A stretch of DNA of 64,000 nucleotides, from assembly GCA_903883645.1 (NCBI GenBank), contig CAISBR010000081.1:2833-66832 (forward strand), given 5' to 3'. This DNA is from an uncultured Myxococcales bacterium. GTDB taxonomy: Bacteria > Myxococcota_A > UBA9042. Below are positions 11,062 through 48,437 of the stretch, piece by piece. A program made the position numbers and the translations under genes. The notes beneath the pieces are model-generated. The model saw only the letters and a list, made by a program, of their open reading frames with translations. It made no database searches and was not told where the DNA came from. How positions within the stretch are numbered: the stretch's first letter is position 1; each line of letters begins with the position of its first letter.

Positions 11062-14046
11062 CTACAGGCAGCAGACAGAGCAGGTGTTGGTGACCGACTC
11101 CATGCCGTTTGAGGTGCCGCTGGTGGCCGTGGCTTTGTGCCGCATGAGCCGGGTGTCGTAGCCGCTCGCCCAGATCTGCGTGGCCACGGCGCTGTCGTCG
11201 ATGCAGAGGGTCTTGCCGTGTACTTGCGGGCCGTTATAGGCCTCGACGCCGCCGATGTGACCCGAGTAGGCCGTGCTGTAGCCCGCAGCGCAGGCCGTCG
11301 AGCCCAAGCTGGTATAGCAGCCGCCGGTGCAGCAAATGGCACAATTATTCGGCACTTCTTGCATGCCGTTCGAGCTGTCTTGGGCGCGCATCAAGCGGTT
11401 ATTAAAGCCGCTCGCCCACGCAGTCTTGGTGGCCGCGCCAGTGGTGACGCACTCTAGGTTGCCGTGCATGGTGCCGCCGCCCGTTTGGTAGTTCTCCAAG
11501 CCGCCAGGCCGCCCGGTGACCACCGCAGTAAAGCCAGACGCGCAACTGGTGCTGCCCCAGTGCGTGTAGCACGAACCGGCGTTGGGGTGGCTGTGGTCCG
11601 AACGCGAGGCGGTGACTGCCGAACCGCTGCCGGCAAAGTTGACCGCAACGGTGCCACTGGTGGTAATTGTGCCACCCGACAGGCCCGTGCCTGCGACAAT
11701 CGACGTGACCGTGCCGCCCGAGTTCGCGTCGGCGCTGCAGGTGACCGCACCCGTGGCACTGATGCCAAGGACATGCTGCCCAGACGGGCACGCCTGGTTC
11801 GATATGGCGAAATTGCTTCCTGAATAGGTGGTATTGGCATCGGCCGCGCACGAGACTACGCCGCTCGCGTTGATGCCGCTGACGTACTGCCCGGCGGGGC
11901 AGCCCTGGTTCGAAACCGCAAAGTTTGTGCCCGAGTACGTAGTGTTGGCGTCGCCGGCGCAGGTGACCACACCGCTCGCGTTGATGCCGCTCACATACTG
12001 GCCGCCCGGGCAACTCTGCGCCGATGTGGCGAAATTCGCGCCCGAGTAGGTCGTGTCTTTGTCGGCAGTGCACGTGGGCTTGCCGGTGGCGTCGATGCCG
12101 AGCATGTGCTGGCCCGAGGCGCAAGTCTGGTTCGATAAAGCGAAATTGCTGCCCGAGTAGCTGTTATTGGCGTCGGCGGCACAGGTCACTGCACCGCTGG
12201 CGTTGATGCCCGTGACCACTTGGCCCGACGCGCAAGCCTGGCTGCTGACTGCGAAATTGGCACCCGAGTAGCTGTTGTTGGCGTCGGCGGCGCAGGTGAC
12301 CGCACCGCTGGCGTTGATGCCGCTCACATACTGGCCGCCCGGGCAACTCTGCGCCGATGTAGCGAAATTTGCCCCCGAGTAGGTCGTGTCTTTGTCGGCG
12401 GTGCACGTGGGCTTGCCGGTGGCGTCGATGCCGAGCATGTGCTGGCCCGAGGCGCAAGTCTGGTTCGACAAAGCGAAATTGCTGCCCGAGTAGCTGTTGT
12501 TCGCGTCGGTGGCACAGGTCACTGCACCGCTGGCGTTGATGCCCGTGACCACTTGGCCCGACGCGCAAGCCTGGCTGCTGACTGCGAAATTTGCCCCCGA
12601 GTAGGTGGTGTCTTTGTCGGCGGTGCAGGTGGGCTTGCCAGTGGCGTCGATGCCGAGCATGTGCTGGCCCGAGGCGCAAGTCTGGTTCGACAAAGCGAAA
12701 TTGCTGCCCGAGTAGCTGTTGTTCGCGTCGGCCGCGCAGCTTACTTTGCCGCTGCCGTCGATGCCGGTGACCACTTGGCCCGACGCGCAAGCCTGGCTGC
12801 TGACTGCAAAATTACTTCCTGTATATGTCGTGTCCTTGTCGACGGCGCACACGACGGCGCCGCTGGCCGAGATGGCGGTCGCGACCTGGCCGCTGGGGCA
12901 GGCTTGGCTCGCCAGCGCAAAATCCTTGCCGCTGTAGGTGGTATTGGCGTCGGCGGCGCACTGAGCTTTACCTGTACCATCAATGGCATACACCACTTGG
13001 CCGGGGGCACAGGCCTGGCCCGACACCGCAAAATCCTTGCCGCTGTACAGCGTGTCTTTATCGACCGCGCACACCACCTTGCCGCTGCCATCGACGCCGG
13101 TGGCGACTTGACCACTCGGGCAAGCCTGGTTGGATACAGCGAAATTCTTGCCGTCGTAATTAACCGGGGTGTTCTGGTCGGCCACGCAAGTAATCTTGCC
13201 GTCCGCGCCGATGGCCGCGATGATCTGACCGCTGGGGCACGTTTGACCCGAAAGCGCAAAGTTCTTGCCATCATACACACTCGGCGTGTTCTGATCGGCC
13301 ACACAGGTGAGCTTGCCGTCCGCGCCAATGGCCGCCACGATCTGGCCGCTGGGGCAGGTCTGACCCGAAAGCGCAAACGAATTACCATCGTACGTGGGCA
13401 AGTCTTGGCATGCCACCTTGCCGTTCGCATCCACGCCGACCACCGTCTGGCCTTTGCCACACGCCTGCCCCGTCGGCACCAACTGCGGCGTTCCCTTTAA
13501 ATCCGCGAAGTTGCCAGACGTTGCCACCGCAGCAAGCGAGGCACTTTTGGCATACGGCTGCAGCACTTCGGCGGCCAGCATGTCGGCATTCACACAACCC
13601 GAGCACTGCAGCGCCTGGGCCGACGACGCCACCTGCGCCCGCAGCGCATACGGCACCTGATGCAGCGCCAGCCGCGGCAATTCGGCCTCCGCGCCCACTT
13701 GCGCACTAACCCAGGTCGCCTGACCGCCGAAAAACACGGACTTATCCAGCGGGGTCTTGGCGCCAACCTGCACCGCAAACATGCCCTTGATGACCTTGAC
13801 CGCCGGATCGATATAGGTATATACCGCCTTGGTATCATTCACATTTTCGTAAAATCGTAGCGTCAGCGCGTAGTCACCGTCGGGCACCGGAAAGCCGGCG
13901 GCATTGGTCAAACGCCCCTGCAGCGCCAGTTGGTCCTCGACCGCCAGCGCCGGCAGCGCAACGGTCAGCCCGAGCAGCAGCGCCAGCCCCGCCAGCGCCC
14001 GCAGCCAGGTTTTCCCCATTGTTCTAGTGCGTTGCATCCTCATCAT
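11062..14046 (-). CDS. Large secreted repeat protein: N-terminal beta-rich domain, about 16 tandem 37-aa Cys-pair repeats (consensus YSGxNFAxSxQxCxSGQxxxGIxAxGxxTCxADxNT), then a duplicated Cys-rich C-terminal module
   Basis: Signal peptide MGKTWLRALAGLALLLGLTVALPALA. The repeat unit is 111 bp, and three-unit (333-bp) super-repeats are near-identical at DNA level. For example, the shadow ORFs 11991..12182 and 12324..12515 are offset by 333 bp and are nearly identical. The C-terminus holds two ~85-aa modules ending in CAICC and CSVCCL. The exact start is uncertain (candidate Met codons at 14019-14046). Confidence 0.7.
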   Translation of the reverse strand: MMRMQRTRTMGKTWLRALAGLALLLGLTVALPALAVEDQLALQGRLTNAAGFPVPDGDYALTLRFYENVNDTKAVYTYIDPAVKVIKGMFAVQVGAKTPLDKSVFFGGQATWVSAQVGAEAELPRLALHQVPYALRAQVASSAQALQCSGCVNADMLAAEVLQPYAKSASLAAVATSGNFADLKGTPQLVPTGQACGKGQTVVGVDANGKVACQDLPTYDGNSFALSGQTCPSGQIVAAIGADGKLTCVADQNTPSVYDGKNFALSGQTCPSGQIIAAIGADGKITCVADQNTPVNYDGKNFAVSNQACPSGQVATGVDGSGKVVCAVDKDTLYSGKDFAVSGQACAPGQVVYAIDGTGKAQCAADANTTYSGKDFALASQACPSGQVATAISASGAVVCAVDKDTTYTGSNFAVSSQACASGQVVTGIDGSGKVSCAADANNSYSGSNFALSNQTCASGQHMLGIDATGKPTCTADKDTTYSGANFAVSSQACASGQVVTGINASGAVTCATDANNSYSGSNFALSNQTCASGQHMLGIDATGKPTCTADKDTTYSGANFATSAQSCPGGQYVSGINASGAVTCAADANNSYSGANFAVSSQACASGQVVTGINASGAVTCAADANNSYSGSNFALSNQTCASGQHMLGIDATGKPTCTADKDTTYSGANFATSAQSCPGGQYVSGINASGVVTCAGDANTTYSGTNFAVSNQGCPAGQYVSGINASGVVSCAADANTTYSGSNFAISNQACPSGQHVLGISATGAVTCSADANSGGTVTSIVAGTGLSGGTITTSGTVAVNFAGSGSAVTASRSDHSHPNAGSCYTHWGSTSCASGFTAVVTGRPGGLENYQTGGGTMHGNLECVTTGAATKTAWASGFNNRLMRAQDSSNGMQEVPNNCAICCTGGCYTSLGSTACAAGYSTAYSGHIGGVEAYNGPQVHGKTLCIDDSAVATQIWASGYDTRLMRHKATATSGTSNGMESVTNTCSVCCL
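11900..13300. repeat. Array of 111-bp coding tandem repeats organised as 333-bp near-identical super-repeats
   Basis: Derived from the periodicity of the translated 37-aa units and from duplicated shadow ORFs offset by 333 bp. Confidence 0.65.
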
Positions 14047-40924: not shown

Positions 40925-41470
40925 TTGAACGAAGTCGAGCTCACAGCGCGGGTGCTGGCGGCACGGAGCGGGGATCGGGCCGCGCAAGAGGCGCTGGTCC
41001 AGGCCTTTTTGCGGCCGGCGTACGCTGTCGCGCTGGGCGTGCTGCGCAATGTGGCCGATGCCGAAGATACCGCGCAAGAGTCGCTGCTCAGGGCACTGCG
41101 AACCCTAGACCAGTGCCGCGAGCCGGCGCACTTTGCGGCGTGGCTGCTCAAGTCGGTGCGCCATCGCGCCCTGAGCGTCGTGCAGCAGCGTGGGAATCGG
41201 ACTCGCCTTTTGGGTACGCTGCCGCCAGGTCCCGATGTCGCGCCCGCCCCGCTGGCCGCGCGGCAACGGCTCATTGCGGCGCTCGAAGTGTTGAACCCGG
41301 CGCAGCGCGAGGTGGTCTTGCTGCACGATCTGCAAGATTGGACGCACGCAGAGATCGCCGCTGCGCTCGAGATCTCGGAGACAATGTCGCGCCAGCACCT
41401 GTTTGTGGCGCGGCGGGCGATGCGCAAACATCTGGATGACGGAACAGGCAAGGAGGTTGTGGATGGATGA
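40925..41470 (+). CDS. ECF (group IV) RNA polymerase sigma-70 factor
   Basis: Sigma-70 region 2 (AQEALVQAFLRPAYAVA...DAEDTAQESLL) and region 4 (EVLNPAQREVVLLHDLQDWTHAEIAAALEISETM). TTG start. Confidence 0.85.
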   Translation: MNEVELTARVLAARSGDRAAQEALVQAFLRPAYAVALGVLRNVADAEDTAQESLLRALRTLDQCREPAHFAAWLLKSVRHRALSVVQQRGNRTRLLGTLPPGPDVAPAPLAARQRLIAALEVLNPAQREVVLLHDLQDWTHAEIAAALEISETMSRQHLFVARRAMRKHLDDGTGKEVVDG

Positions 41471-41789
41471 CGACCGCATCGACTTTACGGCGCTCGATCC
41501 GTGGCGAGAGGCCCAACAGGTTCAGGCGCTTAGCAAAAGCATTGTCGAGGAGCACCGAGCTGCGACGGAGCGCATGCCGCTTTACGCGCTGCTGGTGTCG
41601 CTGGCCCCGCGCGGTGTGCTCACGGCCGCGCTGGCAACCGCGCTGATCTGGTTGCTGCCGAGCTTAATGCCGCACGAGCCGCCTGCAACCGCGCCGACCA
41701 CCGCCACCTTGGCGCACTGGATGGAGCGCGGCCAGGTGCCAAGTGGGGTAGAGCTGCTCAAGCTTGCCGAGGTTTTGCATGAAAAGTGA
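41463..41789 (+). CDS. Putative anti-sigma factor (single transmembrane segment)
   Basis: ATGGATGA overlap with the sigma gene stop codon. One hydrophobic helix (LYALLVSLAPRGVLTAALATALIWLL). The call rests on position. Confidence 0.45.
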   Translation: MDDDRIDFTALDPWREAQQVQALSKSIVEEHRAATERMPLYALLVSLAPRGVLTAALATALIWLLPSLMPHEPPATAPTTATLAHWMERGQVPSGVELLKLAEVLHEK

Positions 41790-42168
41790 GCGCCAACCGA
41801 GTTCGCGGCTTTGGCTCGCCGTGCTGACCCTGGTCGCCGTCTTTGCGCTGGGTGTGGTCGCTGGCCTGGGCTTGGCGTACACGTTTCGGCCGCCACCGCC
41901 GCCGGACTACTTGGCGCGCGAGCCCGATGGCGTGCTGCCGCCGTTCGACCGGCTTGGTCTGAGTGCCGCGCAAAAAGCCCAGGCCCGCACGATCGTGCAG
42001 CGGCACGCGGCGGCGATGGAGGATGCGCTGCACGTGGCGTTTCCCAAGATGCGCGCGGTGCGGCTGCAGCTCGACGCCGACATGCGCACCATCCTGACCC
42101 CAGAGCAGAACAAGCAGCTCGACGCCTTTTTGGCGACGAATCCACCGATGCCCGGCGAGCCGCGGTAG
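41779..42168 (+). CDS. Periplasmic LTXXQ-motif (Spy/CpxP/ZraP-like) metal-stress protein
   Basis: Signal peptide, then LSAAQKAQARTIV and LTPEQNKQLDAFL motifs. The ATG overlaps the upstream gene's stop codon. Confidence 0.6.
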   Translation: MKSERQPSSRLWLAVLTLVAVFALGVVAGLGLAYTFRPPPPPDYLAREPDGVLPPFDRLGLSAAQKAQARTIVQRHAAAMEDALHVAFPKMRAVRLQLDADMRTILTPEQNKQLDAFLATNPPMPGEPR

Positions 42169-42262
42169 TTCAAATTTCTCCGCGCACCGCCTAACGCTAG
42201 CACCCTTTGAGCGGTCTACTAGCGGGGTGCAGTTCCGCACTCTCGTCACCAAGGACACATCT

Positions 42263-43822
42263 ATGCCCATGCCCACTTCTCGTCGCCGTCGCTTGCTTTT
42301 GTGGCTGAGCGGCACGGTTTTCGCCGTCACCGCCTGCGGCAGCGATCCTGCGCCCACCAGCAGCGCCAAAGCCGACACGACCGACGGCATGGGCGGCATG
42401 GACATGAGCTATGTCGACTCGACCACCGGCGACATTCCCCCGTTCGACGGCACGACGATTACGCCCAAACTGCCTGGAACGCTGTGGATTCCGCCCGCGC
42501 TGGCTGCCAAGTCGTTCAATCTGAACCTAGCCAAGACCACCAAGCAGCTGCGTACCGGCGCGGCGACGGCCACGTACGGCTACAACGGCGCGGACTTTTG
42601 GGGGCCGACGCTCATCATGAAGAAGGGCGACCACGTCAAGCTGAACGTAACCAATAACCTAGCTGCCGACACGACGACGCACTGGCACGGGCTCCACCTG
42701 CCCGCAGCGATGGACGGCGGGCCGCACCAAGTTATCGCGCCGGGAGCGACCTGGTCGCCCGAGTTCGACGTCATGAACCACGCAGCGCTGTTCTGGTATC
42801 ACCCGCACATGCACGAGCACACCAAGGAGCAGCTGGCTTACGGTGCGGGCGGTTTCATCCTGATTCAAGACGACGAAGAGGCCAAGCTGGCGCTGCCGCG
42901 GAGCTACGGCGTCGATGACATTCCGATTGTCTTTAGCAGCCGCCGCTTTACCACCGACAACCAGTTTGATCTCACGGGCGAATACGGCGACTACCTGATG
43001 GCCAACGGCATCATCGACGCGACTACGACGTTGCCGGCGCAGGTGGTGCGGCTGCGGCTGCTCAACGCCGAGACCGAGCGCAGCTACATGGTGGGCTTTG
43101 CCGATGGGCGCACGTTCCAGCTCATCGGCACCGACGGTGGCCTGCTCGATGCACCTGTGCCGCTGCAAAAGCTGATGCTGTCTGCGGGTGAGCGCGTCGA
43201 GATTCTGCTCGATCTGTCGAAGGATGCGCCCGGGGCGACGCTGGCGATGCAGGCCTTTAACGGCGGATTCTCGCTCGGCTTTCCGGGCGGTGAGCCGGCG
43301 AGCAGCGGCCAATTCGGCAGCCTGCTAAACAACAAGACGTTCGACATGCTCAAGATCACTGTGGGCGCCGCAACGACCGGCGCGGTCACAACAATCCCCG
43401 CTGCGCTCGTCAAGAACACCTACTGGACCGCCGCCGACGCAACCAACAGCCGCACGCTCAAGGTCACCGACAAGGGCCCCGGCACGCCGTTCACCTTTGA
43501 CAACGCGAGCTACAACATGGACACCATCAACCAGACCGTGGCGCTGAACGCCATCGAGAAGTGGACCATCACCAACGACCAAGTCTTTGGCCACGTGTTC
43601 CACATCCACGACGTACAGTTTAAGATCGTGTCGCGGAGCTCGGGGAAGGTCGACGCGTGGGAACAGGGCTGGAAAGACACGGTATTTTTGCCGATCAACG
43701 AATCCGTAAGCTTTGTCGCCAAGTTTGACGACTTTGCCAGCGCGACCGACCCGTACATGTACCACTGCCACATGGCCAACCACGAGGACGGCGGGTTGAT
43801 GGGGCAGTTCTTAGTAAAATAG
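42263..43822 (+). CDS. Multicopper oxidase (CueO-like), Tat signal plus lipobox
   Basis: SRRRRLLLWLSGTVFAVTAC|GS. Copper-binding motifs HWHG, HPHMH and HCHMANHED, and a Met/Gly-rich segment. Confidence 0.85.
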   Translation: MPMPTSRRRRLLLWLSGTVFAVTACGSDPAPTSSAKADTTDGMGGMDMSYVDSTTGDIPPFDGTTITPKLPGTLWIPPALAAKSFNLNLAKTTKQLRTGAATATYGYNGADFWGPTLIMKKGDHVKLNVTNNLAADTTTHWHGLHLPAAMDGGPHQVIAPGATWSPEFDVMNHAALFWYHPHMHEHTKEQLAYGAGGFILIQDDEEAKLALPRSYGVDDIPIVFSSRRFTTDNQFDLTGEYGDYLMANGIIDATTTLPAQVVRLRLLNAETERSYMVGFADGRTFQLIGTDGGLLDAPVPLQKLMLSAGERVEILLDLSKDAPGATLAMQAFNGGFSLGFPGGEPASSGQFGSLLNNKTFDMLKITVGAATTGAVTTIPAALVKNTYWTAADATNSRTLKVTDKGPGTPFTFDNASYNMDTINQTVALNAIEKWTITNDQVFGHVFHIHDVQFKIVSRSSGKVDAWEQGWKDTVFLPINESVSFVAKFDDFASATDPYMYHCHMANHEDGGLMGQFLVK

Positions 43823-43845: not shown

Positions 43846-44553
43846 ATGCATCGTTTTGCTCCTGCGCTTTTGGCGCTCCTTGTTGCATGTAGCGATTCAA
43901 GCGCCGCCAACACGGCCGACAGCAGCGGTGGCGACAGCTCCGCAGCGGGCAAGCGCAATTCCCGCTACTGCGAAATCCTGTTCGGCAGCATTGGCGCAGG
44001 CGCGGTGCACATCGATGTGTACTCGACCGAAGGCCTGAACAGCTGCCCCGACGCCGCGTGGAAAGCCCTGGATACTTCAGCGCTAAAGGCCGCGGCGGGT
44101 GCGGATATCGTGGTGCTGAACGGTCCGCGGTACTGGATGCTCGATTCGCTGGCCGGGTCGGTGCTGCAAGACACCGCGGTCAAGTCCTTTGGCGGCATCG
44201 GCATGCGCATCGCGGGCAAGATCGAAGTGCCGCTGGCCGACCTGTCGAAGATGCAGCAGCCGTATGCGCTGCACATGATTCACCGGCAGAGCGCGTTCCA
44301 CTGGCTGGCCGGGCAGCCGGCGTACGAGCTGCACGACGCGAGTGGCCACGCGTATGTGATGCAGTCGTATAGCGCGCAGAAAATGGCGTTAACTATCGAG
44401 GATTTGGCCGGTCTAGCGACGAAGCTGACGGCGCTGCCGACCGGCTGGAGCTATGCGCCGCGGACCCTGGATAAGGGCCTAGATCTGCTGGCGACTGCCG
44501 GCGACGCCACGGTCGTGCAAGATGAGCTGGGCAATACGTATTCGATGGAGTGA
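43846..44553 (+). CDS. Lipoprotein, hypothetical (probable member of the copper-stress module)
   Basis: Lipobox LLVAC|SD. 235 aa. It immediately follows the MCO gene. Confidence 0.5.
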   Translation: MHRFAPALLALLVACSDSSAANTADSSGGDSSAAGKRNSRYCEILFGSIGAGAVHIDVYSTEGLNSCPDAAWKALDTSALKAAAGADIVVLNGPRYWMLDSLAGSVLQDTAVKSFGGIGMRIAGKIEVPLADLSKMQQPYALHMIHRQSAFHWLAGQPAYELHDASGHAYVMQSYSAQKMALTIEDLAGLATKLTALPTGWSYAPRTLDKGLDLLATAGDATVVQDELGNTYSME

Positions 44554-44583
44554 CGGGGGGCGATGTCTTGTCCCCGTTCCGAT

Positions 44584-44889
44584 CTAGGCCGCCGCCGGCT
44601 TCAGCACATGCACTTCGCCCAGAATCCGCGCCTCCGCCTCATCACGCTGCCGTTCCAGGTCGTACCGCGACTGCAGGTTCATCCACAGCTCCGCCGACGT
44701 GCCGAAGAACCGCGCCAACCGCAACGCCGTGTCCGCACTGATGCCACGAATGCCGTGCACGATCTCGTTGACCCGCCGCGGCGGCACGGCGATGTCCTTG
44801 GCCAAACGGTACTGCGACACACCGAGCGGCAGCAGGAAGTCTTCGAGCAGCACTTCGCCCGGGTGAATCGGCGCCAGTTTGTCGTTCAT
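44584..44889 (-). CDS. higA: HigA-family antitoxin (XRE helix-turn-helix), copy 1
   Basis: HPGEVLLEDFL...G.SQ..LA..I.V...R.NEIV.G.R.I.A..A.RLARFFGTS...W.NLQ is the HigA/VapI signature. It lies downstream of a RelE/HigB-like gene. Confidence 0.8.
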   Translation of the reverse strand: MNDKLAPIHPGEVLLEDFLLPLGVSQYRLAKDIAVPPRRVNEIVHGIRGISADTALRLARFFGTSAELWMNLQSRYDLERQRDEAEARILGEVHVLKPAAA

Positions 44890-44900
44890 GGTTGACTCCT

Positions 44901-45188
44901 TCAGTGATAGTCCACGATTTCAACCGATTCAGCGCCGCCGGCCGTCCACAGGAAGCACACGCGCCACTGGTCGTTGATACGGATGCTGTGCTTCCCCACA
45001 CGGTCGCCGCTCAAGGCTTCCAGCCGATTGCCGGGCGGCACACGGAGATCGTCCAGCGCAATCGCCGCGTCCAGGTGCACCAACTTGCGCAGCGCCGTCC
45101 GCTGGATGTCGGGCGGCAGTTTACGCACCCGCTCGCGGCGGAAGAGCTTCTCGGTTTCGATGTCGGCGAAGGACCGGATCATGGCCAC
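44901..45188 (-). CDS. higB: HigB-family toxin (RelE/ParE superfamily), copy 1
   Basis: ...PPGNRLEALSGDRVGKHSIRINDQWRVCF.W..GGAESVEIVDYH is the HigB killer-protein signature. Confidence 0.8.
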   Translation of the reverse strand: MAMIRSFADIETEKLFRRERVRKLPPDIQRTALRKLVHLDAAIALDDLRVPPGNRLEALSGDRVGKHSIRINDQWRVCFLWTAGGAESVEIVDYH

Positions 45189-45309
45189 ATAATAACGGGG
45201 CCCGGTAGTAACGGCAAGCGTTCATACCATCCCAGCCACCAGCGCTGCGGGCAGAACGTCCCAGACCTGTGTACAAGCGCGGCCAGTGGCCCACAGCATT
45301 CGCTGAAAG

Positions 45310-45432
45310 ATCGTCGGCCAGAACGTCGCGCAATGTTTCGATTTCACACATTAAACCGGTGTTTGGCTAGCTCGTGGTTTCAATGGGTTGTGGCGGTTTT
45401 CCCCGTTTTGTCCCCGTTGAGATCTACGCCGC
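45310..45432. repeat. Cassette junction element A (~95 bp). The left part (AACGGGGACAAAACGGGGAAAACCGCC, minus-strand orientation) abuts the higA copy-2 stop codon. The right part ends in CCGGTTTAATGTGTGA, a copy of the ychF 3' terminus.
   Basis: Direct sequence comparison with element B (46200-46290; about 85% identity) and with the ychF 3' end (47180-47195; 16/16 identity). Confidence 0.7.
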
Positions 45433-45711
45433 ATCCCGCAGAAGCTTGACCGCTTTGCCAGGCCGCGTCCGGCCCAAATCATGCGCGGCCTGCAGGTTCA
45501 TCCAGAACTCTGGCGTCGTGCCCAAAGCCTGCGACAACAGCCACGCCGTCTCGGGCGTAACGCCCCGCTTGCCCTTGACCAACTCGTTCACCCGCTGCAC
45601 CGGCACGCCCAGGTGGGCGGCAAACGCGACCTGGGTCACGCCGAGCGGGGCCAAGAACTCTTCAAGCAGGATTTCGCCCGGATGCGTCGGCGTACGGTTC
45701 TGCGGCAACAT
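45424..45711 (-). CDS. higA: HigA-family antitoxin, copy 2
   Basis: Paralog of 44584..44889 (THPGEILLEEFL...RVNELVKGKRGVTPETAWLLSQALGTTPEFWMNLQ). Confidence 0.8.
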   Translation of the reverse strand: MLPQNRTPTHPGEILLEEFLAPLGVTQVAFAAHLGVPVQRVNELVKGKRGVTPETAWLLSQALGTTPEFWMNLQAAHDLGRTRPGKAVKLLRDAA

Positions 45712-45720
45712 CTTGACCTC

Positions 45721-46011
45721 CTAATGGTAGTCCACCAGCTTCACATCATCGGCTTGACCGTCGACCCAGCGCAAGATGATCCGCCACTGGTCGTTCACAC
45801 GAATGCTCAACCAGCCTTCCAGGTCGCCATGCAAGGCTTCCAAGCGGTTGCCGGGTGGCGAACGCAGATCCTGAACGGCTGCTGCCGCCACGATCATGTC
45901 CAACTTGCGGGCGGTCGCCTTGACGAGTGCCGCATCGAGCCGCCTGACCTCGCGGGTCGCGTGGCCGTGGAACACGTCCTCAGTGCGTTGGTCGCCAAAG
46001 CTGCGGGTCAC
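45721..46011 (-). CDS. higB: HigB-family toxin, copy 2
   Basis: Paralog of 44901..45188 (...SPPGNRLEALHGDLEGWLSIRVNDQWRIILRWVDGQADDVKLVDYH). Confidence 0.8.
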   Translation of the reverse strand: MTRSFGDQRTEDVFHGHATREVRRLDAALVKATARKLDMIVAAAAVQDLRSPPGNRLEALHGDLEGWLSIRVNDQWRIILRWVDGQADDVKLVDYH

Positions 46012-46199
46012 GCCGGTCTCGTCGCCGCCAAAATGCGGCTTGGCTTCAAGATAGCGGATACACGGATACCGTGCAAGCGTGATAACGTGTTGACCCAGTG
46101 AAGCCGATCAACCGGCCCGAATTCGATCCCCGCTGCGGGACACGCCAGGCAGTGCGGGGAGGTGATTTGGCAAGGCGCATGTGTTGTAAGTATCTGAAA

Positions 46200-46290
46200 T
46201 TACGCGATTCACTACACATTAAACCGATGTTTCGCGGCGTAGTGATTTCATGGGGTTGCGGGCGGTTTCCCCGTTTTGTCCCCGGTGCGG
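46200..46290. repeat. Cassette junction element B (~95 bp), homologous to element A. It starts right after the hicA stop codon (CCGGGGACAAAACGGGGAAACCGCC...) and ends in ATCGGTTTAATGTGTAG.
   Basis: Direct sequence comparison. Confidence 0.7.
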
Positions 46291-46512
46291 TCAAAGATGC
46301 TTCCGGAGTTCCTTCTCGTCGAGGCCGAACAGCAGACACGCCTTGCGGATGTAAATCTCAGCAATTTCAGTCTTGTCGCCGTGGCTCGCGGGAATCGGGT
46401 AGGTCTTGCCGTCCTTGGCCAGTTTCCAATGCGAACCACCGCCGGTTGGCGGCGTGGCTTCGACGCCAAACTGCTCAAACGCTCGTTTGACGTTGCGAAA
46501 ACGCGGAGGCAT
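46291..46512 (-). CDS. hicA: HicA-family toxin (YcfA-like mRNA interferase)
   Basis: GGSHWKLAKDGKTYPIPASHGDKTEIAEIYIRKACLLFGL matches the HicA pattern GSH...G...T.P.H...el..gt...I.kqaGl. It lies downstream of a HicB-like gene. Confidence 0.65.
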   Translation of the reverse strand: MPPRFRNVKRAFEQFGVEATPPTGGGSHWKLAKDGKTYPIPASHGDKTEIAEIYIRKACLLFGLDEKELRKHL

Positions 46513-46527
46513 GGGTGCTGGCCTCGG

Positions 46528-46986
46528 TTACGCTGCCGTCGGCCAAACGACGGGTTGACGCTGCAGGACCGGCTCGGGTGCTTTGGGCTTGGAACTTCTT
46601 ACCGAAGTGCCAATGGATACGAGCTTTTCGGCGTCCGAGGTGGGCATTTCGAACTGAAACAGACACAGGGCCTGAACGGCCAACGTGTGAATCTTGCTCT
46701 CGACGAGGTTTTCCAATCCCGCCGTAGCTTGTCCGTGCGTCACGACATCGAAGAAAGTGTCCCAATCCTCGGGCGGGGCCCGCCGGTCAGCTGGATCCTT
46801 GCCGGCGACAACGTCCCATTGCACCACGAGTGCCGACGCTTCGACCGCCATCTTCAGGGCGTGCTGCAAATCGTCGCCCTGGGTGATCACGTCGAAGTCG
46901 AGAACATGCACCGCCCAGACCGACGGCAAGTCGTCCGGGTGGTGAAAGTGCATCGACAGATTGTAGAACTTCGCGACCATGGCCAT
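46528..46986 (-). CDS. hicB: HicB-family antitoxin (UPF0150 / RNase-H-like N-domain)
   Basis: From Met77 of the listed ORF (MAMVAKFYNLSMHFHHPDDLPSVWAVHVLDFDVITQGDDLQHALKMAVEA). This is the HicB N-terminal signature (...P.lpGc.tqGdt.eEAl.na.EA). Confidence 0.65.
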   Translation of the reverse strand: MAMVAKFYNLSMHFHHPDDLPSVWAVHVLDFDVITQGDDLQHALKMAVEASALVVQWDVVAGKDPADRRAPPEDWDTFFDVVTHGQATAGLENLVESKIHTLAVQALCLFQFEMPTSDAEKLVSIGTSVRSSKPKAPEPVLQRQPVVWPTAA

Positions 46987-47179
46987 CGGGCCTCCAGCCC
47001 TGTGGCCATGATAGTCGGCGGTGCACGAACGTGCAATCTGGGTGCGAGAACCATGCGAAATTAGTGGGTTGTGCGACACTCCGACGCGAACCGGCGGGAG
47101 CGAGTCGACGGCGACGGCCGATGCCGGCGGGCACACGGCTTCGGAGAACGGGCCAGACCGGGCAATGCGGGGCAATGTC

Positions 47180-48271
47180 TCACACATTAAACCGGAAGTT
47201 GCAAACATCCCCATCGCGCATCACGTATTCCTTGCCTTCCATGCGCTTCTTGCCCGCGGCGCCGACCGCGCTCTCTGACCCCAACACGAACAAATCCTCG
47301 CAGTTGTAGATCTCGGCCTTAATGAAGCCGCGCTCAAAGTCGGTGTGAATCACGCCCGCGCCCTGCGGCGCCGTCCAGCCCTTGTGAATGGTCCACGCCC
47401 GCGCTTCTTTGACGCCCGCCGTATAATAGGCTTGCAATCCAACGAGATCATAGGCCGCGTGCGCCAAGCGATCCAGGCCCGAGTCGTGCAGGCCCAGCGC
47501 GGTCAAGAACTCGGCGCGCTCGTCCTCGTCGTCTAGTTCCGAGATCTCCGCCTCCGTCTTGCACGACAGCTCGACCACCGCCGCCCCCTCGGCCTTGGCC
47601 AGCGCCCGCACACGCTCTAAGTACGGATTTTCGGTGCCCGGGTCGGTGGTATTGGCCACGTACAGCATCGGCTTGCGCGTCATCAGCTGCAGATTCTTAA
47701 GGTGAATCTCTTCTTCTTTGGCCACTTGCATCGTGCGAGCCGGCTGTCCCGAGTTGAGCACCGCGTACACGCGCTCGAGCAGCGCAACCTCGGTCACGAT
47801 GTCTTTATCGCCCGTTTTCAGCAGCTTCTGCTGCTTGTACAGCCGCCGCTCCACTTGCTCCAGGTCGGCCAGCGCCAGCTCGGTGTTGATGATCGCCGCA
47901 TCGCGCTCGGGGTCGACCGAGCCCTCGACGTGGACCACATCACCGTCGTCAAAGCAGCGCAATACATGGGCAATTGCGTCCGTCTCGCGGATATTCGCCA
48001 AGAACTTGTTGCCCAGCCCTTCGCCTTTGCTGGCACCCTTGACAAGTCCTGCGATGTCAACGAACTCCATGGTTGTATAGATGATCGTCGGCGTACCCAC
48101 AATCTTGGCAATCCGGTCGAGGCGCGGATCACGCAGCGGCACGATGCCCTTGTTCGGCTCAATGGTGCAGAACGGGTAGTTGGCCGCTTGGGCACCGGCG
48201 CGCGTCAGTGCATTGAAAAGCGTAGATTTTCCAACATTTGGCAGCCCAACAATACCGCACGACAGACCCAT
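47180..48271 (-). CDS. ychF: Ribosome-binding ATPase YchF (Obg-family)
   Basis: From Met75 of the listed ORF (MGLSCGIVGLPNVGKSTLFNALT...). It has the G1 to G4 motifs and the TGS domain, and ends ...RDGDVCNFRFNV*. The last 16 bp (CGGTTTAATGTGTGA) are reiterated in the downstream junction elements. Confidence 0.9.
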   Translation of the reverse strand: MGLSCGIVGLPNVGKSTLFNALTRAGAQAANYPFCTIEPNKGIVPLRDPRLDRIAKIVGTPTIIYTTMEFVDIAGLVKGASKGEGLGNKFLANIRETDAIAHVLRCFDDGDVVHVEGSVDPERDAAIINTELALADLEQVERRLYKQQKLLKTGDKDIVTEVALLERVYAVLNSGQPARTMQVAKEEEIHLKNLQLMTRKPMLYVANTTDPGTENPYLERVRALAKAEGAAVVELSCKTEAEISELDDEDERAEFLTALGLHDSGLDRLAHAAYDLVGLQAYYTAGVKEARAWTIHKGWTAPQGAGVIHTDFERGFIKAEIYNCEDLFVLGSESAVGAAGKKRMEGKEYVMRDGDVCNFRFNV

Positions 48272-48437
48272 GGTGACCTCGTTGCGCCAAGACGGGGTCG
48301 GCGCGGGGGCGCGGATTTCACCACGGTAGCGCGGCGGCAGCAAGCCATGTCGGCGCAAACAGTTGACAACCCTCCGCACGATCGGCAGTTTGCGGTTCGC
48401 GGCGGTGTAGCGAGGCGCTCTCGCTTCGCCGCAGACG

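Follow-up and report, generated by a model that had tools for sequence, protein, structure and literature searches.

How did several small gene cassettes come to be stacked directly behind the housekeeping gene ychF, separated by repeats of that gene's own last codons? The question is raised by a 64 kb stretch of DNA (hereafter the window) from an uncultured lake Myxococcales bacterium (contig CAISBR010000081.1), in which the locus reads on the minus strand as ychF, a pair of genes encoding 151-aa and 73-aa proteins, higB2-higA2, higB1-higA1 and then the end of a convergent lipoprotein gene. With moderate confidence we favour site-specific accretion of non-autonomous toxin-antitoxin (TA) and defence cassettes at the 3' end of ychF, probably by a recombinase of the tyrosine type acting in trans. 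The initial annotation of the window had likewise proposed repeated site-specific integration with regeneration of the ychF terminus. This proposal is supported by variable arrays, a shared junction element and codon-constrained cores, from which we infer recombination. Loci of related contigs are designated below by L-numbers.

Repeats of the ychF terminus at cassette junctions

The ychF open reading frame (ORF) is intact, its stop codon is the start of the cassette array in the window, and direct repeats of its terminus are located at every junction. The final 16 bp of the gene are CCGGTTTAATGTGTGA, which read TCACACATTAAACCGG on the plus strand and recur exactly at 45344-45359; an exact 16-mer duplicate is expected about 3e-5 times in 64 kb. 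This copy, at the end of element A, had been recognized in the initial annotation but placed 2 nt off (45346-45361). The copy recognized in element B is also present, at 46212-46227, with mismatches at 3/16 positions (or 2/15). Elements A and B are 76% identical over an alignment of 91 nt, and the similarity around the 16-mer thus stands up to alignment. In addition, the 19-mer CGGGGACAAAACGGGGAAA is found within the window only in A and B, with 0.02 occurrences expected. Element B is made up of a left arm (two copies of CGGGGA-N5, then CGCAAC and TGAAATCAC) and the core TCGGTTTAATGTGTAG.

The truncated third element that had been described after higBA1 is present as element D, GTCTTGTCCCCGTTCCGAT, following the stop codon of the copy-1 higA gene. 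Its left arm (ATCGGAACGGGGACAAGAC) ends 11 nt from the stop of the convergent lipoprotein gene, and the truncation is identical in L006; element D is the decayed distal end of the array. Elements A, B and D all begin 0-3 nt past the stop codon of the last gene of the upstream cassette, as the initial annotation had it. The array is not an assembly artefact, because 17 independent metagenome contigs from this species carry it in identical form; they differ only in a few single-nucleotide polymorphisms and in how many copies they have of a 10-bp repeat next to the ychF stop.

A family of junction elements in related Myxococcota

At least 12 related lineages of freshwater Myxococcota yielded 25 non-redundant copies of the element, with a mean column identity of 76%. 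The element is ~80 bp in length, a left arm of ~65 nt being followed by a core of 13-16 bp. The family consensus is CCGCAcCGGGGACAAAACGGGGAAA..C..CGCAAC....TGAAATCAC.........GAAACATCGGTTTAATGTGT, comprising two direct CGGGGA repeats in tandem, spaced by one helical turn, the CGCAAC and TGAAATCAC blocks, and the core, which can also be written CGGTTYAATGTN or CGGTTTAATGT. At every locus where ychF is visible the array begins at the ychF stop codon.

Searching the GTDB species representatives for the exact 19-mer gave nine loci in metagenome-assembled genomes (MAGs) of lake Myxococcales/Myxococcota, with a CGGTTTAATGTGT-like core 58 nt beyond the 19-mer (51 nt in one shorter copy) and several elements alternating with cassettes. 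In L015, L020 (CAIMLR010000002.1) and L025, whose retrieved stretches include ychF, the array starts at the ychF stop. Eight 19-mer matches in other phyla lacked the core and were taken as chance. Within JGI metagenomes a first two-part pattern had no match, while a second returned one true array (L051: ychF, higBA1, element) and one chance match. As to a phage or plasmid source of the attachment (att) site, IMG/VR scans gave chance matches only, and blastn against PLSDB and INPHARED found nothing.

The core behaves as coding sequence

In 13 lineages ychF ends with CGG TTY AAT GTN and a stop codon (TGA, TAG or TAA), and 19/28 element cores still read R-F-N-V-stop over 15 nt. Variant codons of the cores are synonymous in 30 cases and non-synonymous in 22, against an expected synonymous share of 22% (p=3e-8, kinship ignored); the synonymous count is conservative, two rows being mis-registered. 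The variants themselves (TTT/TTC, GTG/GTC/GTT, TGA/TAG) are those of ychF ends in different species. Such a synonymous bias is expected if the crossover falls inside the core, each copy serving for a time as the end of ychF. Comparison of the window with L006 gives 92% identity over the terminal 89 nt of ychF, although three of the very last five nucleotides are different (GTG TGA versus GTC TAG), a difference that would fit a swapped ychF terminus.

Leaders are shared between cargos

Between the core and the promoter of each cassette lies a leader of 85-130 nt. Approximately four leader types are found, recurring with different cargos and reassorting independently of the genes. Leader 1 is located after A and before higBA1 in the window, and after ychF and before higBA2 in L015; it is 82-86% identical to L015:1871-2004, to L015:3696 onward and to a stretch of L029, the latter two preceding higBA1. 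Leader 2, located after B and before higBA2 in the window and before unrelated genes in L016, L020 and L021, is 79-83% identical to the leader behind ychF in L020 and to those behind elements in L016, L021 and L025, and contains the inverted repeats AGTG..CAGATACT and GTCCCGCAGCGGGGA. Leader 3 is located behind ychF both in the window and in L010, and leader 4 is joined to a variant element in a cargo-less unit of 122 bp present at seven loci. The ychF-proximal junction has the same leader types (1-4) as the internal junctions, a finding expected if the ychF core is where cassettes enter.

Homology of the gene modules begins at the promoter -35 and not at the core (from 46081 for higBA2, from 45222 for higBA1). 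The higBA2 module is 83-90% identical in L015, L016 and L025 from the promoter onward; the higBA1 module is 98% identical in L006 and 87-90% identical in L010, L019, L021 and L025. The initial annotation had pictured the repeating unit as a cassette plus a scar. A shared element is indeed present at every junction, but the unit is more complex, with leaders that reassort apart from genes. We read the leaders as the right arm of an att site of ~180-220 bp common to many cargos, a likeness to the Vibrio cholerae repeats that are common to unrelated integron cassettes.

Most leaders carry sTTGC, inverted relative to the CGCAAC block, and types 2 and 3 also carry an inverted CGGGGA repeat block. 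To judge from their sequence, the tandem CGGGGA repeats of the elements and the inverted copies of the left-arm motif in the leaders may be arm-type protein-binding sites, which they resemble. The inverted copies (TGCCCCGCAYTGCCCGG versus CCGGGGACAAAACGGGGAA in leaders 2 and 3) give many cassettes imperfect inverted ends, which could speak for a miniature inverted-repeat transposable element (MITE) or mobile insertion cassette that has terminal inverted repeats and is mobilized by a transposase in trans, the 16-mer being its target-site duplication. However, leader types 1 and 4 are without the inverted motif, and the repeat is 13-16 bp, codon-constrained and in the same register at every junction. 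Nor does any copy lie outside the ychF arrays in any sequence searched. A hidden Markov model (HMM) of the element detected only A and B in the window and elsewhere array copies only, with no copy in the remainder of the 64 kb or in ~20 flanking loci, and a dispersed repeat was rejected as a candidate. The MITE family that the initial annotation had named as a possible refutation is therefore not what is seen in the window, in the retrieved flanks or in the one exact 19-mer scan of GTDB species representatives, and we give this explanation scarcely any credence.

The leaders appear prone to repeat expansion of a GC-rich motif. In L021 (2070-2180) leader 2 contains at least four tandem copies of a 19-bp unit, CACTGCCCCGCGTGTCCCG. 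The 10-bp repeat within leader 3 of the window, whose unit reads GGGCAATGCG on the plus strand, varies in copy number among near-identical contigs of the same species (window 2, L001 3, L005 4, L003 ~7).

Comparison with attC and dif sites

Integrons are the textbook platform for stockpiling small gene cassettes. The initial annotation had raised an attC-like folded structure of the elements, and the array does consist of at least two cassettes each ending in a conserved site, as in an integron or a cluster of attC sites lacking an integrase (CALIN). However, folding of four elements as single-stranded DNA, on both strands, gave z values of -1.7 to +1.0 against shuffles; RNAalifold placed 0 pairs in the consensus of the 25 copies, with no covariation; and the attC boxes GTTRRRY and RYYYAAC (R'/R'') are absent from A and B. 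No terminator-like sites were found in the elements, and an Rfam scan of 44000-47600 gave nothing relevant (Rfam holds no attC model). Conservation of the element is in sequence blocks and not in structure, and the idea of a folded attC-like site has to be abandoned.

An integron integrase encoded at another locus could nonetheless have founded a CALIN at a secondary G|TT site within ychF. The cassettes are co-oriented, TA cassettes are typical of chromosomal integrons (PMC13108822), and the GTTTAAT of the core (GGTTTAAT) matches GTTRRRY at 6/7 positions. In addition to the lack of a fold and of R'/R'' boxes, identity of 13-16 bp with a coding target is unlike a recombination of attC with attI, and we consider this origin very unlikely.

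Xer-dependent modules, of the Acinetobacter dif type or of the integrative mobile elements exploiting Xer (IMEX), would be moved by the host XerC/XerD between dif-like sites, and dif modules are likewise small, often carry TA genes and have no recombinase of their own (PMC6449649, PMC13141974). Searches of A, B and the ychF end for a dif-like site gave at best 10-15/28 mismatches, the 28-bp consensus and the XerD arm matching no better than shuffles (this consensus may differ from the dif of the host). Moreover, the sites here are ~80 bp or more and all direct, and the target is the 3' end of a coding sequence and not the dif of the terminus. Movement by Xer is thus equally hard to credit.

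Cassette content varies among relatives

Among related MAGs, in which YchF homologues are 98-77% identical, the ychF 3' flank is hypervariable, carrying 0, 1, 2 or 3-5+ cassettes of differing kinds and orders. The three cassettes are therefore not a block fixed by vertical inheritance, one of the outcomes by which the initial annotation would have been overturned. The window array consists of the HicAB-like pair, higBA2 and higBA1. In L006 (YchF 98%) an Mrr-type endonuclease gene precedes higBA1, the truncated element D and the lipoprotein gene as in the window. L010-L013 (YchF 89%) contain a HicAB-like pair, a truncated element, higBA1, a full element, a higA remnant and AbiE, while L009 (YchF 92%) and L035/L036 (80%) have an empty site with no array. 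In L015 the order is higBA2, mqsRA, higBA1 and SRPBCC-TetR; L033 (YchF 79%) has an excisionase-family HTH_17 gene, an mqsRA-like pair, an element and DUF4160/DUF2442 ahead of core genes; and L032 (YchF 81%) has a large defence island.

Further cargo includes mqsRA-like pairs, a GNAT toxin, vapBC (PSK_trans_fac and PIN), DUF4160/DUF2442, Mrr (usually fused with higBA1 into one cassette), a helicase of the Schlafen type that has an S24 peptidase domain, SWIM with SNF2, TetR with SRPBCC, an unknown two-gene unit, AbiE and an excisionase-family protein. Cassettes also shift in rank: higBA2 leads the array in L015, takes second place in the window and comes third or later in L016. With at least 10 different cargos the layout is the same and compact: core, 130-200 nt of non-coding DNA (leader and promoter region), cargo and element, for units of 0.12-3.3 kb.

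We considered whether the locus could be a vertically inherited defence and TA island, altered by homologous recombination through the flanking core genes, with the elements serving as 3' regulatory sequences and their likeness to ychF a by-product. The window and L006 differ in the block between ychF and higBA1, which is compatible with allelic replacement, and a tandem CGGGGA also occurs upstream of the HTH_17 gene in the manner of an operator. This would, however, leave unexplained the in-frame, synonymously varying R-F-N-V-stop at the ends of elements, the exact start of arrays at the ychF stop and the identity of proximal and internal leader types, and the elements contain no terminator-like or folded structure. 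We therefore hold such an island to be improbable.

Several cassettes have features of their own. At L006:8122-9670, L019:45-1600 and L025:1911-3480, a gene for an Mrr-type restriction endonuclease shares one cassette with higBA1, and the TA pair may stabilize the nuclease gene there. A recurrent cassette of ~3.3 kb, termed X/Y, encodes a reverse-oriented winged helix-turn-helix (HTH) protein (IclR/MarR-like) and a 402-aa protein (L016:479-2824; L020:5580-7937, first after ychF; L029:912-2399). The 402-aa protein has no relative in Pfam, NCBIfam or PDB, and the cassette was rejected as a source of the recombinase, having no recombinase signature. At L010:10355-10519, and also in L011, a 54-aa higA remnant is chimeric. 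Its N-terminus is similar to HigA2 (88% nt, window 45632-45723) and the rest to HigA1 (86% nt, window 44774-44873), and by this mosaic it appears to be a relic of recombination between two paralogous cassettes.

Larger islands at the same site and the search for a recombinase

The recombinase was sought in gene tables and by Pfam, NCBIfam and PHROG scans of cassette and flank ORFs. In the window no integrase, resolvase or transposase domain was found in genes within 10 kb on either side or in the ORFs of 24.6-63.8 kb, and the absence of a linked integrase noted initially is thus confirmed over that range. In the window the position where intI would adjoin the primary site holds ychF, with no Phage_integrase match. 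Four complete arrays likewise contain no integrase, even in fragmentary form.

Candidate helpers are found at related loci. In L033 an HTH_17 excisionase-family gene adjoins ychF (TIGR01764, 47 bits; PHROG recombination directionality factor and excisionase families). Contigs carrying homologues of this gene revealed larger islands at ychF. Larger, island-like inserts occupy the ychF site in L014/L049, L048 and L032 (L049 logan:SRR24750920_23721; L048 ena:ERZ27313264:k141_354935; L032 ena:ERZ27310456:k141_7541546), and an HTH_17 gene is present in L014, L048 and L049, though not in L032. Island cargo includes HTH_17, DUF4314, a reverse transcriptase, a methyltransferase and many small ORFs. 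In each of these inserts the 122-bp unit is located directly behind ychF (L014:8093-8214, L032:11099-11220, L048:5366-5486, L049:10704-10827) and is followed by a conserved module of ~200 bp and then by island-like DNA. The 122-bp unit is also found at L025:1004-1131, L018:176-301 and L030:539-657, and its core extends the match with ychF leftwards (ACTTCGGTTCAATGTGTAG). The ~200-bp module, which follows the unit in 5/7 loci (L014, L032, L048, L049 and, internally, L025), consists of an inverted CCCCG...CGGGG motif and AACCAAAGTTAGC; the latter occurs twice, 30 nt apart, in L014, L048 and L049 and once in L032. Sharing of the site by a family of islands means that larger elements target the same core.

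The stretches adjoining ychF in L049 (1-10400) and L048 (1-5200) encode a 761-aa reverse transcriptase (RVT_1), a ComM-like Mg-chelatase ATPase, DUF4314, an N6/N4 methyltransferase and the HTH_17 excisionase-family protein. No integrase is located in the visible 10 kb of the L049 and L048 islands, and the islands of L032, L048 and L049 extend beyond the retrieved DNA. The integrase of such larger islands would be the most economical candidate for an enzyme acting in trans.

These islands also lend themselves to another history, in which full-size islands with their own integrase inserted serially and deletion left TA modules beside each attR, the small cassettes never having been mobile. Sharing of the site with larger islands that carry an excisionase-family gene accords with such inert scars, as do the truncated elements (D, L010, L033), the invariance of the array within the species, and the reassortment of leaders and gene modules, which suggests secondary rearrangement. 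Random deletion, on the other hand, would not cut at the stop codon each time, as the uniform compactness with at least 10 cargos would demand; the same cassette types are found with complete elements at different ranks, and the 122-bp cargo-less unit is kept in seven loci. We consider inert scars an unlikely origin, although one that deserves some weight.

A model of cassette accretion

In the accretion that we favour, the ychF 3' end would provide a site-specific recombination system with its primary attachment site, at which small cassettes accrete in tandem. Each cassette would comprise a leader of ~85-130 nt as right arm, a cargo with its own promoter, and a left arm of ~65 nt with a core of 13-16 bp; the cargo is usually a type II TA pair and sometimes a defence or regulatory gene. 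The core (CGG TTY AAY GTN stop) duplicates the last four codons and the stop of ychF. A crossover within it would therefore let the cassette's copy end ychF, leaving the protein intact, while the previous terminus would be moved to the distal side of the incoming cassette. Distal sites would then decay, of which D, L021_1956 and L015_5784 may be examples. A recombinase encoded at another locus would read the sites in double-stranded form, the likeliest enzyme being a tyrosine integrase with an excisionase-family HTH_17 helper from larger islands at the same site. TA cargo would stabilize the array, and homologous exchange through ychF, shared cassettes and repeated elements would reshuffle it further.

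Several observations weigh against this account. No array was found to contain or adjoin a recombinase gene (flanks of 7-10 kb at ~15 loci, 40 kb of the window), and neither excision nor insertion was seen, all 17 same-species contigs having the identical array. Some neighbouring cassettes have no element between them (Mrr and higBA1; higBA1-higBA2 in L025), and the second boundary of reassortment, at the edge of the promoter -35, cannot be explained by core crossover alone. L010 and L011, whose YchF is identical, are 99.7% identical for 12.5 kb and unrelated past position 12545, a breakpoint that coincides with no element or core and reflects an assembly chimera or a rearrangement of some other type. 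Finally, the data all derive from metagenome assemblies, no whole genome having been scanned.

Going beyond accretion as such, we tentatively propose an integron-like capture platform, previously undescribed, in which a dedicated recombinase would insert, excise and reorder compact cassettes in the last codons of ychF. With the same reserve, its sites would be double-stranded and ~180-220 bp long, and it would hold a TA and anti-phage defence library of freshwater Myxococcota.

Genes of the window locus

The coordinates of the locus are given in Table 1. The two HigBA pairs that had been called at the ychF 3' end are confirmed. Both have the HigB (RelE-fold) toxin gene upstream of the HTH-XRE HigA antitoxin gene, both toxins belong to PF05015 (1.6e-17 and 1.5e-21) and both antitoxins to HTH_3 (PF01381), the Pfam matches of the higBA2 module being HigB-like_toxin 1.5e-21 and HTH_3 1.5e-10. 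HigA1 also matches TIGR02607 (1.5e-31), the NCBIfam equivalog HigA. The pairs are paralogous, as had been stated, with ~49% protein and ~68% DNA identity. A promoter scan placed TTGCCG-17-TATTAT at 45217-45189, ahead of higBA1.

Three TA cassettes had been announced, but the label hicBA for one of them, cassette 1, is weakly supported by sequence comparison. The 73-aa protein matches HicA_toxin at 15 bits against a cut-off of 27, and has weak matches to the PDB entry 5yrz HicA (E=0.5) and PHROG 353 'toxin' (E=0.0078). The 151-aa protein has no match in Pfam or NCBIfam, and its single-sequence AlphaFold model (predicted local distance difference test score 40.6) is too poor for use. The gene order of this putative pair is reversed with respect to E. 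coli hicAB.

On the distal side, the lipoprotein gene likewise flanks the array in L001-L006. Beyond it, genes for an extracytoplasmic function (ECF) sigma factor, a putative anti-sigma/Metal_resist protein and a multicopper oxidase (window 40925-43822) resemble a copper-stress module. Remnants of the multicopper oxidase and lipoprotein genes also flank the L021 array.

Table 1. Features of the ychF cassette locus, ordered in the direction of transcription of ychF (window coordinates)
Feature	Position	Strand	Remarks
ychF, redox-regulated ATPase/GTPase, target gene	47180..48274	-	Pfam MMR_HSR1 and YchF-GTPase_C
Core copy 1, last 16 bp of ychF (CCGG TTT AAT GTG TGA = R-F-N-V-stop)	47180..47195	-	Exact 16-mer shared with element A; proximal junction, attL-like
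10-bp variable number tandem repeat, CGCATTGCCC on minus strand	47150-47179	-	Inside leader 3, directly 3' of ychF stop
Leader type 3 and promoter region of HicAB-like pair	46984..47179	-	89% kept after ychF in L010
151-aa HicB-like putative antitoxin, cassette 1	46528..46983	-	PHROG 497 'HicB-like' E=6.5e-5, residues 5-55 only
73-aa HicA-like putative toxin, cassette 1	46291..46512	-	HicA_toxin E=0.027, below Pfam cut-off
Element B, full junction element	46212..46292	-	nhmmer E=3e-24
Leader type 2	46082..46211	-	Conserved stretch 46127-46211
higBA2 module, cassette 2	45424..46081	-	Promoter ~46012-46081, higB2 45721-46011, higA2 45424-45711
Element A, full junction element	45344..45424	-	Ends in exact copy of ychF 16-mer
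Leader type 1	45223..45343	-	Sequence similarity to L015 and L029 leaders
higBA1 module, cassette 3	44584..45222	-	higB1 44901-45188, higA1 44584-44889
Element D, left arm only	44565..44583	-	Truncated; repeat family D2/D3
Convergent 235-aa lipoprotein gene, distal chromosomal flank	43846..44553	+	ORF list; stop 44551-44553

Comparison with known systems

The initial annotation held that ychF is not commonly reported as an integration hot spot. Keyword searches of a library of papers returned no description of such arrays at ychF; within that library the gene came up only in a discussion of prophage integration in Streptococcus pneumoniae (PMC6375853). As there described, that case shares the gene, but it concerns another phylum and a single prophage with its own integrase and no cassette array. 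On the most conservative reading, ychF is a recurrent integration and defence hot spot across the clade. The core doubles as C-terminal codons of ychF, and selection on this essential-type gene would thereby police the recombination site. If the recombinase is identified, the locus could provide a new model for the pooling of TA and defence genes in an uncultured, environmentally abundant lineage, the element HMM together with ychF could serve as a marker for arrays in metagenomes, and a new site-specific integration tool for Myxococcota might possibly follow.

Tandem accretion at the 3' ends of genes and tRNAs is known from arrays of integrative and conjugative, integrative and mobilizable, and cis-mobilizable elements (ICE, IME and CIME; PMC5812530, PMC5704250) and from the tycheposons of Prochlorococcus (bioRxiv 10.1101/2020.12.28.424599). 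Features of such accretion found at ychF are the direct repeats of the target 3' end at junctions, the intact target ORF, occupied as well as empty sites, and differing inserts. In both groups, as proposed here, the target is regenerated, older units are pushed distally, distal sites degenerate, and units without an integrase would need one in trans. The ychF arrays differ in their units of 0.12-3.3 kb, which are essentially cargo plus a highly conserved arm of ~80 bp, in the target, in the predominance of TA cargo and in the few leader types common to unrelated cargos.

Chromosomal integrons and CALINs (IntegronFinder, PMC4889954; TA cassettes in chromosomal integrons, PMC13108822) are alike in their ordered, mostly co-oriented small cassettes with a family-conserved end site and one primary insertion point, in TA cassettes with their own promoters, in cargo-less cassettes, and in content that varies among relatives. 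Here, in contrast, blocks of double-stranded sequence are conserved, without fold, covariation or R'/R'' boxes, and the primary site lies inside a housekeeping ORF, is codon-constrained and has no adjoining intI.

The pdif modules of Acinetobacter, moved by XerC/XerD (PMC6449649, PMC13141974), are also small and recombinase-less, often carry TA genes and have short conserved bounding sites and an enzyme encoded elsewhere. They differ from the ychF cassettes, which lack a dif-like 28-mer, have direct and not alternating sites, and are located on the chromosome at a gene 3' end and not on a plasmid. In mechanism, the ychF arrays are closest to CIME/ICE or tycheposon accretion; in cassette economy, they are closest to chromosomal integrons or dif modules. 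The dif modules combine a different recombination chemistry with a similar modular economy, and the ychF locus looks like a third solution.

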